This document shows, piece after piece, positions 1 through 4,838 of a stretch of DNA of 5,179 bases (positions are counted from its first letter, which is position 1; each line of letters begins with the position of its first letter). A program made the position numbers and the translations under genes. The stretch comes from a plasmid. Below the pieces are notes generated by a model. The model did no database searches, was not told where the DNA came from, and saw only the letters and a program-made list of their open reading frames with translations. The DNA lies in the sequence record NZ_CP072337.1. One strand, written 5' to 3'.

Positions 1-564
1 ACAACCTATTCTGTAAGTTCGTTGGGACAAATAAAGTTAGGCGGTAAAATAGGATATAGCCATACCAATACAGCAAAAGTAATAGGGGGAAGAGGATATG
101 ACGGTCTTATTTATGGCTTAACATCTTCGTTTCCTATTTATAAAAGTTTGAGAGTTAATAGTGATGTTCTCTTAGAAGGAAGAGGGTATGTTATAGATAA
201 AGGAATATATGACACTGCAAATCTAACATATAAAGATTGTAAAGTTACATTCAAATATATTGATATACCAGTGCTATTGGAAACCGATGTTAATAATTTC
301 TTATCCATAGAATTTGGTCCGTATATAGGAATGCAAGTTGGAAGAAATTTGTTTTATGACAACGAAAAACAGGACAAAGACTTATTAGGGAAAAAACAAT
401 TTTTTGATATGGGATTTCTTGCAGGTATGAAAGGGGAATACAAAGGTGTTTTTTTAGAAATTTTATATCAATATGGTCTTTCTCAGGCGTTTAAGGATGT
501 AAATGATTTTAAAACTAAAGGCGTGTGTATAAATTTTGGGTATATGTTTAATTTAAAAAAATAA
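1..564 (+). CDS. Outer-membrane beta-barrel protein, PorT/OmpA-like beta-barrel family. It is 5'-partial: the frame is open back to the window edge and no signal peptide is visible.
   Basis: ORF 22..564 is reported with a TTG start, but codons 1-21 are in frame with no stop. Amphipathic beta-strand patterns alternate through the protein (KVTFKYIDIPVLLE, FLSIEFGPYIGMQVG, GVFLEILYQYGL, GVCINFGYMF), typical of small Bacteroidetes OM barrels. AT-rich codon usage. Confidence 0.5.
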   Translation, partial: TTYSVSSLGQIKLGGKIGYSHTNTAKVIGGRGYDGLIYGLTSSFPIYKSLRVNSDVLLEGRGYVIDKGIYDTANLTYKDCKVTFKYIDIPVLLETDVNNFLSIEFGPYIGMQVGRNLFYDNEKQDKDLLGKKQFFDMGFLAGMKGEYKGVFLEILYQYGLSQAFKDVNDFKTKGVCINFGYMFNLKK

Positions 565-566
565 GT

Positions 567-1217
567 ATGAAACATTGGTTTATTTTTCTGAGTACGATGG
601 CGATATTTATGTTTTCGTCATGTAGTAATGACGAATCTGATTTGCAATCTGCGACATCTATAAAGGATGTTCCAATGAAGCTTTCTGGAACATTGACACC
701 AGAAAATCCAGTACAGACAGTAAAAGTAGGTAATCGTTATGTTACTCTGTTGTTAGAAAATAGTGAACAATTAGCAGAAGGAACAAGAGCCATAGTCCCT
801 ATTGAGGATCCTCGTCCTAAACCTGGTGAAATAGGTCCGTTTTATGCACAGGGAACTCCTAAAAAAATGGTTGGAAAAGAGTTTAAAAATAGAAAAGTCT
901 TTATACCGAATACTTTTGGAGTTCCAACAGGCGTGTACTTTGGAGATGTTTGGGAAACGGCAGGTATTATAAGACTCCCAGATAATGCCTATATTGCAAG
1001 AGTAGCATTTCCTAGGCCTTCAGGGTTTAAAAATTATAAAACTTTAGTTCCTGGTGTTAGTTGGAAGTTAGATACAGAAGAAGGTGATAAAATTTCTGTA
1101 GAATGGTCTTTTTATACCTTTGTGCTGAATTTCAATGCTGCAGGAATGCGTATTAATGAAGTGGTTCCTATTGATGGTAAAAAAGTTAGAATTCCATATT
1201 TCTATAAAGTAGATTAA
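567..1217 (+). CDS. Lipoprotein of unknown function, probably surface-exposed, co-transcribed with the upstream OM barrel gene.
   Basis: The N-terminus MKHWFIFLSTMAIFMFSSC is a SPII-type signal with a lipobox Cys. The acidic stretch after the Cys (SNDESD) resembles the Bacteroidetes lipoprotein export signal. The start lies 2 bp after the stop of the upstream gene. No recognisable catalytic motif. Confidence 0.55.
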   Translation: MKHWFIFLSTMAIFMFSSCSNDESDLQSATSIKDVPMKLSGTLTPENPVQTVKVGNRYVTLLLENSEQLAEGTRAIVPIEDPRPKPGEIGPFYAQGTPKKMVGKEFKNRKVFIPNTFGVPTGVYFGDVWETAGIIRLPDNAYIARVAFPRPSGFKNYKTLVPGVSWKLDTEEGDKISVEWSFYTFVLNFNAAGMRINEVVPIDGKKVRIPYFYKVD

Positions 1218-2737: not shown

Positions 2738-2761
2738 CAAGGAGGGGTTTACCCCTCCTTG
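2738..2761. promoter_or_regulatory. Perfect palindrome caaggaggggt-tt-acccctccttg, 41 bp upstream of mob. Candidate oriT inverted repeat, with an adjacent GTGTG motif on the mob strand.
   Basis: Arms of 10-11 bp with a 2-4 nt loop. On the minus strand it is immediately preceded by ctgtgtgc (plus 2762-2769, gcacacag). MOBV oriTs carry an IR next to a GTGTG-type nick sequence. Position relative to mob fits oriT. Confidence 0.4.
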
Positions 2762-2763
2762 CA

Positions 2764-3075
2764 CACAGCACTTTTAGAAGATTTTGCGTACAAAATCATA
2801 TAAAGGTGCTCGTGTGCGTTTTTCTCTGCATATTTGCTTGGGGCAAATATACATCGAAAAACCGAAACCGCCAAACGAATGGGTGTCTTTTTTGGATGTG
2901 TTTTGCTAATGAGTGCGGGCGAATAGAAGGGGGTATAGGGGGCAGCATAGCCCCCATAGCGATAGCACCATGAAACGGAGTGGTTAGATGTGCGCCCTGT
3001 GGTGTGGAGGAACGGAACACCCTGCGCACGAGTGGAGAGAGCGAAGCGGAAACGGAACGACCCCATATTATACCA
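2764..3075. other. GC-rich, highly structured non-coding island. Candidate structured RNA or oriT-accessory DNA.
   Basis: No credible ORF: the three overlapping ORFs here have nonsense-like composition. Stem-loops found: gggggc-agcata-gccccc at 2938-2955, and a nested stem gtgcgc/gcgcac (2990-2995 / 3024-3029) enclosing ggtgt/acacc (3001-3005 / 3017-3021). Short direct repeats aacggaac occur at 3012-3019 and 3051-3058. The GC-island composition is very unlike the AT-rich stretch 3090-3260 that follows. Confidence 0.3.
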
Positions 3076-3260
3076 ATGAAAGCACTTTAGCAAAGTTGAA
3101 TCTATTTATTATTATCAGAGATAAATAAATAAAAGATTTTAAATTATGCTTATAATTATAGTATTATCATTACCTGCCTTTAATTGGCTGGCTGTTTTAA
3201 GTCAAATTGCGACAATATATGTTGCTATTATGGAGTTTAGGAGAAATTCTTAATCCTTTA

Positions 3261-3288
3261 AAAGGAGGGGTAATTTTACCCCTCCTTT
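3261..3288. terminator. Perfect palindrome aaaggaggggtaa-tt-ttacccctccttt. Likely a rho-independent terminator for the rep operon, and possibly bidirectional.
   Basis: A 13-bp stem with a T-run on both sides (ttttaaagg on the minus side, tctttcgcttttg on the plus side). It sits just downstream of the 30-aa peptide stop on the minus strand. Its core aaggagggg...cccctcctt is shared with the 2738-2761 palindrome. Confidence 0.5.
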
Positions 3289-3315
3289 CTTTCGCTTTTG
3301 CCATTCTATATGTTC

Positions 3316-3408
3316 TTAGTTTTCCTTTTTGTCTTGGAGATAGAAGTAAATACCGCCAATGTTTGCAATTGCAATGACGAAAAGCATCATTAAAACACCT
3401 GCGTTCAT
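3316..3408 (-). CDS. Unannotated 30-aa hydrophobic peptide (MNAGVLMMLFVIAIANIGGIYFYLQDKKEN), translationally coupled to the rep stop.
   Basis: Manual translation of the minus strand. The ATG at 3408-3406 lies 2 nt after the rep TAG (tagATatg). A single predicted TM helix is followed by a charged tail (DKKEN). The ORF ends 25 nt before the terminator hairpin. It is below the length cutoff of the ORF track. Confidence 0.35.
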   Translation of the reverse strand: MNAGVLMMLFVIAIANIGGIYFYLQDKKEN

Positions 3409-4650: not shown

Positions 4651-4672
4651 AATATATTTTTTTAAAGTTCTT

Positions 4673-4765
4673 TTTAGTCGTTTTGTATCTTTCCCCCCCC
4701 TATTTCTTTAGTCGTTTTGTATCTTTTCCCCCCTATTTCTTTAGTCGTTTTGTATCTTTTCCCCC
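4673..4765. repeat. Iterons: 2.8 tandem copies of a 33-34-bp direct repeat tttagtcgttttgtatcttt(t)C5-8tatttc. This is the Rep-binding replication origin.
   Basis: Copies at 4673-4706, 4707-4739 and 4740-4765. They differ only in the length of the C-tract (C8, C6, C5). They sit directly upstream of the rep operon promoter and are flanked by AT-rich DNA. Confidence 0.8.
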
Positions 4766-4787
4766 TCGCGCATTATGCGCGCGCGTG
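4766..4787. repeat. GC palindrome cgcgca-tta-tgcgcg followed by an alternating (CG)4-5 tract, at the iteron boundary.
   Basis: Direct read of tcgcgcattatgcgcgcgcgtg. A sharp GC island in an AT-rich origin region. Confidence 0.7.
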
Positions 4788-4838
4788 ATACAAGAATATT
4801 CTAACAATATAATTTCTAACAAGGCGAAAATTTTTAGT

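Follow-up and report, generated by a model that had tools for sequence, protein, structure and literature searches.

Origins of transfer (oriT) of the pMV158 type and single-strand origins (sso) are the closest described counterparts of two elements in the mob–rep intergenic region (positions 2738–3288) of a small, ~5.2-kb plasmid of Prevotella type (NZ_CP072337.1), whose whole 5179-nt sequence is referred to here as the window. The oriT oligonucleotide of pMV158 is GCACACACTTTATGAATATAAAGTATAGTGTG/TTATACTTTA, and its minimal site consists of the inverted repeat IR1 plus the 8 nt up to the nick (PMC3105389). In the same plasmid, sso elements flank the mob cassette (PMC5737340), and in IMESag-rpsI, an integrative and mobilizable element of Streptococcus agalactiae, oriT, mob, and ssoA form one module (PMC5090054). 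The sso1 of ICEBs1 has three stem-loops, is orientation-specific, and is located downstream of oriT (PMC4595007). In the window, the corresponding elements are a putative MOBV-type oriT and, beside it, a conserved sequence termed EL, which may act in a manner similar to that of an sso. A further kind of signal is found in the leading regions of F-like and IncI plasmids, where single-strand initiation sites (ssi) and Frpo are structured, orientation-specific, and located on the first-entering part of the transferred strand; in Frpo, the −35 and −10 boxes are rebuilt in a long imperfect hairpin, which drives the leading-region genes.

A 713-nt gap separates the start of mob from the stop of rep, and 2738–3288 takes up most of it. 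The original prediction regarded this stretch as one GC-rich, noncoding, structured island bracketed by two near-identical palindromes. Comparison with relatives indicates that it splits into independent modules and is not a unit; it is a mosaic located between mob and rep on a mobilizable Prevotella plasmid with iterons and a Rep_3 initiator (Table 1). This modular anatomy and the oriT assignment, taken jointly, are very likely correct. The oriT, the mob promoter, the terminator, and the small open reading frames (ORFs) are ordinary plasmid features, and the statement that the region contains no annotated feature class applies to EL alone. As a whole, the modular region with EL as an sso/ssi-like signal is the explanation that fits best, and it is advanced with caution.

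EL in relation to its flanking modules

Judged from sequence comparison, EL is a real, conserved, and previously undescribed element, to which a function is assigned only provisionally below; no description of it was found in the literature. In a blastn search against PLSDB, six other Prevotella plasmids matched the intergenic region, and the matches were confined almost entirely to EL. Further copies were collected with an exact 21-mer from its third hairpin (H3), which yielded 5 genome contigs and about 60 metagenome contigs; these gave 72 copies with 47 distinct sequences. For the loci fished in this way (L004–L075), the invariance of that stretch and the presence of EL on every contig reflect ascertainment and are not findings, and five of the pattern hits (L007, L009, L033, L035, and L073) are chance matches in unrelated DNA. 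Over roughly 70 Prevotella plasmid contigs, the identity of EL is about 85%; between plasmids of different mob types, it is 74–96% (median 85%), compared with 50% for each of the 140-nt flanks, a value typical of unrelated DNA. These otherwise unrelated plasmids have no other sequence in common, and in the PLSDB, genome, and metagenome collections EL was found only in plasmids of Prevotella type.

The position of EL is tied to mobilization. It lies upstream of a mob gene in a single orientation in all 43 mob-adjacent copies, and the orientation is also kept in 5/5 cases in which a mob gene without EL shares a contig with a distant EL. The partners belong to at least five relaxase lineages: four MOBV-like N-terminal lineages and an unrelated MbpA/MbpB/MbpC operon, which encodes NikA-like and Relaxase domains and whose MbpB matches the NCBIfam models MbpB and TraI_MobP. 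EL is always 3′ of the predicted nick, at a distance of 84–87, 96, 110, 112–114, or 139–141 nt depending on the mob type. It is placed between the terminator of the rep operon and the mob promoter, and its right neighbor varies in both identity and strand. When loci were fetched through a 30-aa ORF, without reference to EL, 6/6 held EL in the expected orientation.

EL is noncoding, since indels of 1 nt and 9 nt occur among relatives; two − strand ORFs of 114 and 77 aa that run through it are ruled out by the same indels. The predicted absence of coding sequence thus holds for EL and fails at 3146–3253, where a 35-aa ORF is present on the + strand. GC content and purine/GC skew were read along the sequence, and fold stability was expressed as a z value relative to shuffled sequence. 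The region is GC-rich only from about 2800 to 3100 (0.49–0.53), with values of 0.28–0.36 from 3100 to 3300, and the remainder of the window cannot be called AT-rich, as the mob gene itself has a GC content of 0.41–0.49. Nor is the GC-rich part unusually stable when folded (z of −0.8 on the + strand and −1.0 on the − strand; about 0 in other runs). The exceptional fold is instead at the left edge (2735–2825), where only the palindrome had been noticed and where the oriT hairpin and palindrome 1 folded together give z = −10.7.

The predicted stem-loops at 2938–2955 and 2990–3029 are present and conserved in relatives. The repeat motifs GGAACGGAAC and GAAACGGAAC are also present in the window, the purine-rich tail of EL holding a second GAAACGGAAC. 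RNAalifold and pair counting gave three hairpins, H1–H3, in which 98.6% of cells are paired; controls slid along the alignment reached at most 61% pairing and 0–1 compensated cells, compared with the 30 observed. Covariation in relatives, which had been proposed as a check, was found at two EL pairs, both strongly (GC23:AU13 and GC19:AU16), and in the arms of oriT, whereas H3 was invariant in the fished set. The purine and GC skews of EL are strand-asymmetric. One-sided stem changes in EL and the neighboring hairpins produce G–T on the + strand more often than A–C, which is a weak indication. Variants of EL occur in P. corporis (L077, 2569–2610) and P. veroralis (L076, 2139–2215), where the outer GCGC arms remain. 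In P. veroralis, the inner stem of H3 is replaced by a purine-rich run of ~60 nt made of GGAACG(A)AAC repeats; it is possible that these repeats are of greater importance than the inner hairpin of H3.

Some contigs carry two ELs (L027, pPME0001 (L002), L039, and L091). In L027 (1–8431), a window-like plasmid with rep, cargo, and mob is located between two directly repeated ELs with swapped halves, an arrangement suggestive of a cointegrate that arose through recombination within EL. The breakpoints between haplotype blocks are scattered along EL; a nick-site recombination hot spot inside the element was rejected on this ground.

Table 1. Features of the window, with those of the mob–rep region first (., no strand assigned).
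Feature	Position	Strand	Remarks
EL, conserved GC/purine-rich element, ~145 nt	2925–3070	+	
EL hairpin H1	2935–2957	+	GGGGGC/GCCCCC
EL hairpin H2	2967–2984	+	ACCA/TGGT
EL hairpin H3	2990–3029	+	GTGCGC..GGTGT[GGAGGAACGGA]ACACC..GCGCAC
Predicted MOBV-type oriT, 57-nt interrupted hairpin	2761–2817	+	From layout, fold, and covariation
Palindrome 1, 10-bp GC-rich hairpin	2738–2761	+	Abuts the oriT hairpin; read directly
Predicted mob promoter, Bacteroidetes type	2844–2875	−	−33 TTTG (reverse complement 2872–2875), 20-nt spacer, −7 TATATTTG (reverse complement 2844–2851)
20-nt inverted repeat	2818–2862	.	Overlaps the mob −7 box and expected transcription start; z = −4.1
T9G8 homopolymer tract in mob 5′ leader	2706–2722	−	10–30 nt upstream of the mob ATG; read directly
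35-aa hydrophobic ORF, MLIIIVLSLPAFNWLAVLSQIATIYVAIMEFRRNS	3146–3253	+	Called as a gene in 37 blocks of an assembly collection
Palindrome 2, predicted bidirectional intrinsic terminator	3261–3288	.	Between the convergent 35-aa ORF (+) and rep/30-aa-ORF operon (−)
30-aa hydrophobic ORF, MNAGVLMMLFVIAIANIGGIYFYLQDKKEN	3316–3408	−	Starts 2 nt after the rep stop; outside 2738–3288
Mob, 456 aa	1327–2697	−	ATG at 2697
Rep_3 initiator, 327 aa	3411–4394	−	
Three iterons, 33–34 nt	4661–4760		
73-aa coiled-coil protein		−	
Outer-membrane β-barrel protein	22–564	+	
Lipoprotein-like protein	567–1217	+	

Relaxase, origin of transfer, and mob promoter

Based on structure prediction, mob encodes a MOBV-like relaxase. 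Searches of Pfam, NCBIfam, and the PDB with the window Mob, alone or as a profile, returned no hits apart from coiled-coil noise. The family was assigned by an AlphaFold2 model of the N-terminal 215 aa (pLDDT 87), for which the top four Foldseek hits are the relaxase domain of MobM (MOBV, pMV158; probability 1.00, TM 0.53–0.59), followed by the MOBQ relaxases NES and MobA, and by tblastn, in which the window Mob is 28% identical to the MobA of pBI143 (“plasmid recombination protein”; E about 1e-17). The HxxR and HxDE..HxH motifs are invariant across the Mob family.

The region 2738–2817 is in all likelihood a MOBV (pMV158/pBI143-type) oriT. On the + strand, the hairpin reads GCACAC-AGCACTTTTAGAAGATTTTG-cgta-CAAAATCATATAAAGGTGCT-C-GTGTGC, and GTGTG (2812–2816) begins 6 nt past the inner repeat; the nick is predicted on this strand after GTGTG, between G2816 and C2817. 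The oriT of pMV158 has the same outer arms (IR3, GCACAC..GTGTG), an inner inverted repeat (IR1) nested in them, a short spacer, and GTGNG/, and is likewise positioned just upstream of a MobM-like relaxase gene, overlapping its leader and promoter region. The inner hairpin of the window is, however, much longer, its spacer is 6 nt rather than 8 nt, and the extra GC hairpin abutting oriT, palindrome 1, is found in the window and not in pMV158. Among the relatives, the N in GCNCAC..GTGNGC is complementary in 28 of 32 MOBV-like loci, with all four bases occurring, and the inner oriT stems are replaced in a compensatory manner. The oriTs of other lineages read AGCCCAC-AACCCT-ata-AGGGTT-ATA-GTGGG/CTATAACC, AGCGCAC..TAA-GTGCG/CTTAGAC, and AGCTCAC..TTA-GTGAG/CTAAGAAC. 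A third repeat, IR2, with GTGNG in its loop, as in pMV158, is perfect in the b-, c-, and d-type relatives, P. veroralis, and pBI143, and is not evident in the window; in relatives, this full three-repeat layout is present only on the strand antisense to mob. At the MbpA/MbpB loci, ATCCTG is on the + strand in 7/11, and MbpA-type loci have a long repeat and then TATATCCTG/C on the same strand, an RP4-like nick motif.

At the position of palindrome 1, other MOBV-like Prevotella mob regions have GGTCAAGGGGGTGCAGCCCCCTG and pBI143 has AAGGGGGCTTGTCCCCTT; palindrome 1 is homologous to these by position and thus belongs to the mob/oriT module. Its variant in L061, L065, and L044, AAGGAGGGG..CCCCTCTTT, keeps the pairing through a G–T wobble on the + strand. 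The plasmid pBI143 (L092, 2640–2700) has the same order as the window, with a GC hairpin followed by CACAC-IR-TA-GTGTG/C (IR, inverted repeat), antisense to mobA; it lacks an EL homologue, as do the other Bacteroides, Parabacteroides, and Phocaeicola plasmids with this Mob. As stand-ins for pMV158, pAMalpha1 and pUB110 were included for comparison. In pAMalpha1 (L093, 1263–1304), the oriT oligonucleotide and mobV are on one strand, in the sense of mob, whereas the window and pBI143 are inverted. The Bacteroidales MOBV-type oriT would thus be inverted relative to mob in comparison with the Firmicutes paradigm, which changes the genes that enter the recipient first. With a nick on the + strand, the promoter region and EL would enter first and mob last.

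A Bacteroidetes-type mob promoter is predicted between oriT and EL. The −33/−7 consensus for such promoters reportedly comes from Bayley et al. in 2000. A single TAnnTTTG box is present 122–146 nt upstream of the mob ATG in 42/43 mob-adjacent loci of all mob types, including MbpA, and a generic promoter scan flags the same site in the window. Given this location of the promoter, the mob leader would extend over about 2698–2836 and contain the oriT hairpin, while EL, being upstream, is not part of it. The inverted repeat that overlaps the −7 box (Table 1) could be an operator. In the leader, the lengths of the T and G runs of the T9G8 tract vary among the near-identical relatives L015, L027, and L061, and this could represent either a slippage-based change of mob expression or an assembly error.

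All the Prevotella plasmids with these mob genes and oriTs are typed as “non-mobilizable” by MOB-suite in their PLSDB records, and several of the mob genes are unannotated or split, e.g., those of a 4.5-kb P. denticola plasmid and of P. veroralis. The mobility of Prevotella plasmids is therefore systematically under-called.

Possible functions of EL

On the evidence of sequence, EL may tentatively be regarded as a strand-specific cis element of the transferred strand, similar to an sso or ssi. As the same position and orientation are found beside oriTs as different as those of the four MOBV-like lineages and that of MbpA/MbpB, an unrelated, MOBP-like system, EL would be a strand-specific signal that is independent of the relaxase and dependent on a host factor. 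That it would be read by the host on single-stranded DNA is suggested by its linkage to the nick strand rather than to a relaxase family or rep, its position, its strand-asymmetric composition, the kept hairpins, the restriction to one host group, and the G–T changes on the + strand. In the mechanism envisaged, Mob would nick the + strand after GTGTG, this strand would be transferred in the 5′ to 3′ direction, and, after it has been recircularized, the three EL hairpins would let the host priming machinery start synthesis of the complementary strand.

This proposal is in line with several properties of known sso elements. The ssoA and ssoU elements of pMV158, the ssoA of IMESag-rpsI, and the sso1 of ICEBs1 are, like EL, noncoding, about 150–200 nt in length, composed of several stem-loops, and orientation-specific. 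They also travel with oriT–mob, as EL does, and an sso is recognized by the host machinery and is hence common to unrelated replicons of one host group. EL is within about 100–260 nt of the predicted nick, at the leading end, and the sso1 of ICEBs1 is likewise downstream of oriT. Nevertheless, no sequence similarity between the known sso elements and EL was detected, and the EL carriers are theta-type (Rep_3, iteron) plasmids of Bacteroidota, for which no described sso or ssi was found. The signatures of ssoA are RSB and a conserved hexamer, CS-6 (TAGCGt), located in a loop. These hallmarks are not conserved in EL: no RSB-like element was recognized in it, and TAGCGA at 2957–2962, a candidate for CS-6, was rejected, most copies having CAGCGA, CAGTGA, or CAGCGG. 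EL resembles Frpo in being structured and orientation-specific but is devoid of Bacteroidetes promoter motifs, and there is no gene with a consistent orientation that it could serve.

Other observations weigh against the sso/ssi-like reading, as does the lack of conserved CS-6. EL contains no TTTG/TAnnTTTG motif from which a host promoter could be rebuilt, as in ssoA or Frpo. Its fold is no more stable than those of shuffled sequences (z about −0.8 on the + strand; both strands were tried). The covariation amounts to two pairs and could represent two linked haplotypes, and symmetric protein-binding sites on duplex DNA would yield the same pattern. H3, the most conserved part, is uninformative on pairing, as it never varies in the fished set, partly through ascertainment; in the PLSDB copies, which are independent of the search pattern, P. 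corporis has an enlarged H3 loop and P. veroralis has lost the inner stem. The oriT strand that matches is antisense to mob, the reverse of the arrangement in pMV158-type plasmids, and the nick strand is assigned by analogy only. Moreover, EL is dispensable, as the complete plasmid pYHBi1 has the same mob and oriT without it; in pYHBi1 and at five second mob genes in cointegrates, oriT and promoter are present, EL is absent, and homology stops exactly at the 5′ edge of EL. Finally, the orphan EL of pPME0001 is opposite in orientation to the only visible mob of that plasmid.

A broader version, somewhat more doubtful, is that EL is a portable, relaxase-independent “leading-end” module acquired separately by the MOBV-like and MOBP-like systems of Prevotella. 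Such a module would be read on entry by a host or helper factor and serve in priming, protection of the incoming strand, or early expression. If this is true, EL would be the first such single-strand signal to be defined in Bacteroidota, with theta plasmids as its carriers in place of rolling-circle ones. Small mobilizable plasmids are abundant in human oral and gut Bacteroidota, and the conversion of the transferred strand to duplex and its establishment are essentially unstudied; EL, with ~85% identity beside the oriTs of unrelated relaxases, offers a concrete, testable handle on strand conversion and a practical marker for the oriT regions of Prevotella plasmids. Should EL prove to be no more than a relic or a site of regulation, nothing in the region would depart from ordinary plasmid architecture.

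An unlikely alternative is that EL is a second oriT, nicked in trans at GTGCG/CCC (2994|2995) by the relaxase of a co-resident conjugative element, in which case more than one helper could mobilize the plasmid. The site follows hairpin H2 by 8–11 nt and resembles a MOBQ/MOBV nick core. The MOBQ consensus is NWACCNNTAAGTGCGCCCTYNN (PMC3832669), Gram-positive oriTs have ..taAgtGCGCcCTta in common, and the nick core of the pMV158 family is GTGNG/ (PMC5090054), all of which are similar to the EL core. As in the MOBQ oriTs of the RSF1010/R1162, pSC101, and pIP501 group, the core GTGCGCCC(T) comes after an inverted repeat, and GTGCGCCC is invariant in 36/38 distinct copies although it is outside the search pattern. 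Orphan ELs without an adjacent mob, located beside toxin–antitoxin genes, would agree with this explanation, and high conservation would fit one common relaxase. Yet the match is limited to an 8–9-nt core, and EL lacks the TAA and ACC that are conserved in the MOBQ consensus; the spacer separating H2 from the core, the part that a relaxase reads single-stranded, varies (AGAT, AATCA, AGGT, and AGGAT) and measures 10–11 nt rather than 8 nt; and the core doubles as the 5′ arm of H3. P. veroralis has ATGCGCC at the core, and no MOBQ relaxase is adjacent, the neighbors being MOBV-like or MbpB. In addition, the recombination breakpoints do not cluster at the putative nick but are dispersed over EL, and a free-standing oriT need not hold a fixed orientation and distance to another oriT.

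It is similarly improbable that EL is a duplex binding platform for a host or helper protein upstream of the mob promoter, through which mob expression or the assembly of the relaxosome would be tied to a conjugative helper being present. EL starts about 50 nt upstream of the mob −33 box, at a distance fixed within 1–3 nt for each mob type, and contains dyad symmetries and two or more GGAACGRAAC units in direct repetition, with higher numbers of units in the variants from P. corporis and P. veroralis; symmetric changes in half-sites would mimic base-pair covariation. Between mob types, however, the distance to the promoter differs by tens of bases (nick to EL, 84 to 141 nt), orphan EL copies have no promoter nearby, and no candidate binding protein is encoded on these plasmids. 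The one-sided stem changes, favoring G–T on the + strand, hint weakly at a single-strand fold.

Transcription of EL was also considered. EL could be the body of a structured noncoding RNA on the + strand, divergent from mob and ending at palindrome 2 or at the hairpin and T-run of relatives, which seems quite improbable. The + strand terminators 3′ of EL in two unrelated right flanks (3261–3288 with the tail CTTTCGCTTT, and CTTGCATCAGATGCAAGTTTTTG in L065-type loci), the covarying hairpins, the wobble changes favoring the + strand, and a promoter-like site, TTTA-N20-TATATTTG, 5′ of EL in c-type loci only, would be compatible with such an RNA. However, the mob types have no conserved + strand promoter in common 5′ of EL, and their 5′ flanks are unrelated; the fold is not stabilized relative to shuffles; the right neighbors differ in identity and strand; and the + strand terminator of the window is explained by the 35-aa ORF. 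Rfam searches with cmscan over the whole window at E ≤ 10 gave no match within 2925–3070 or elsewhere in 2762–3250, the only hits being terminator-like ones at palindrome 2. The earlier idea of a leader or regulatory RNA of mob is not supported for the GC-rich part: the position of the mob promoter refutes the leader, a conserved + strand promoter is lacking, and Rfam gives nothing there. The suggestion of an extended oriT with accessory hairpins came closest, in that a MOBV-type oriT abuts palindrome 1 and EL is linked to oriT/mob.

Very unlikely is a cer-like site for multimer resolution or recombination by host recombinases, which would explain a shared junction in mosaic and cointegrate plasmids. 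The cointegrate-like contigs with two ELs (direct repeats in L027; also pPME0001, L039, and L091), the status of EL as the sole sequence shared by otherwise unrelated plasmids, and the lack of a resolvase among the plasmid genes identified are consistent with it. There is, however, no dif/cer-like core, and matches to the XerD arm are at chance level and outside EL, the pattern being a proteobacterial one from which a Bacteroidota site may diverge. H1 alone offers an arm-spacer-arm layout, and its spacer, whose length ranges between about 2 and 6 nt, cannot support strand exchange; crossovers are scattered along EL, as in homologous recombination; and tight linkage to mob rather than to rep would not be expected of such a site.

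The reading of the whole of 2738–3288 as a miniature inverted-repeat transposable element (MITE) ended by the two palindromes can be dismissed almost entirely. In its favor, the palindromes share 10-nt arms far above chance expectation. Against it, positions 2738 and 3288 are not flanked by a target-site duplication, palindrome 1 belongs ancestrally to the mob/oriT region and is also found in pBI143 and other mob lineages, palindrome 2 goes with an AT-rich small-ORF module missing from the close relatives L065, L049, and L041, EL occurs with many other flanks and recombines independently of both palindromes, and a third near-identical stem, the hairpin AAGTAGGGGT at the mob 3′ end, means that this stem type recurs at three sites.

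Palindromes, small ORFs, and plasmid background

Both palindromes were confirmed to be exact (caaggaggggtttacccctccttg for palindrome 1 and aaaggaggggtaattttacccctccttt for palindrome 2), and they are the sole perfect hairpins with stems of at least 9 bp in the window. Their common core also stands: the 10-mer AAGGAGGGGT occurs four times exactly, compared with 0.2 expected when one mismatch is allowed, and none of 200 shuffles reached the observed count. What does not stand is their role as the ends of one element. A search for recurrence of the block in unrelated contexts with duplications showed that the whole never recurs as a unit, and its three parts segregate independently; together with the missing duplication, this refutes the MITE. 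The stem AAG(G/T)AGGGGT is at the 3′ ends of transcription units at two of its three sites, and this recurrence, rather than a transposon, may explain the likeness of palindromes 1 and 2. The third hairpin, AAGTAGGG..CCCTACTT (1319–1349), overlaps the mob stop codon with a stem nearly the same as those of the two palindromes and has no T-run; it may be a recurring terminator type of this plasmid.

To the right of EL, 3075–3300 is an indel module that carries the 35-aa ORF and palindrome 2. It is present in the window, L017, and L061, in diverged form in L027/L064, and absent from L065, L049, and L041, which have two other hairpins instead. The diverged copy keeps the frame of the 35-aa ORF and a 14-aa core motif, LAVLSQIATIYVAI. 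Palindrome 2 is, as read from its sequence, an intrinsic terminator: a scan calls a + strand terminator with a T-rich tail, TTTT follows on the − strand, and the fold has z = −5.7. In L027/L064, its variant GGGAGGGGTA..TACCCTTCCC keeps the hairpin by compensatory changes.

The assembly collection has the 30-aa ORF in 85 blocks, in each case immediately behind the 327-aa Rep. Almost every difference from the copies in L065, L049, and L041 is synonymous, indicating that the ORF probably encodes a genuine small membrane protein, co-translated with Rep. The two hydrophobic peptides of 35 and 30 aa, convergent across palindrome 2, might form a toxin-like pair.

Contigs of 5.17–5.26 kb that are nearly identical to the window plasmid recur across many metagenomes. 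A literature search on the Prevotella plasmids and pYHBi1 gave nothing relevant. Upstream of rep, each iteron ends in a C6–C8 run, and the iterons are followed by a GC palindrome, gcgcattatgcgcgcgc; this region (4661–4790) is presumably the theta origin. The cargo pair, a porin-like β-barrel protein and a lipoprotein-like protein (22–1217 in the window), recurs on different Prevotella plasmid backbones, e.g., at 572–1862 of pYHBi1 (L079).

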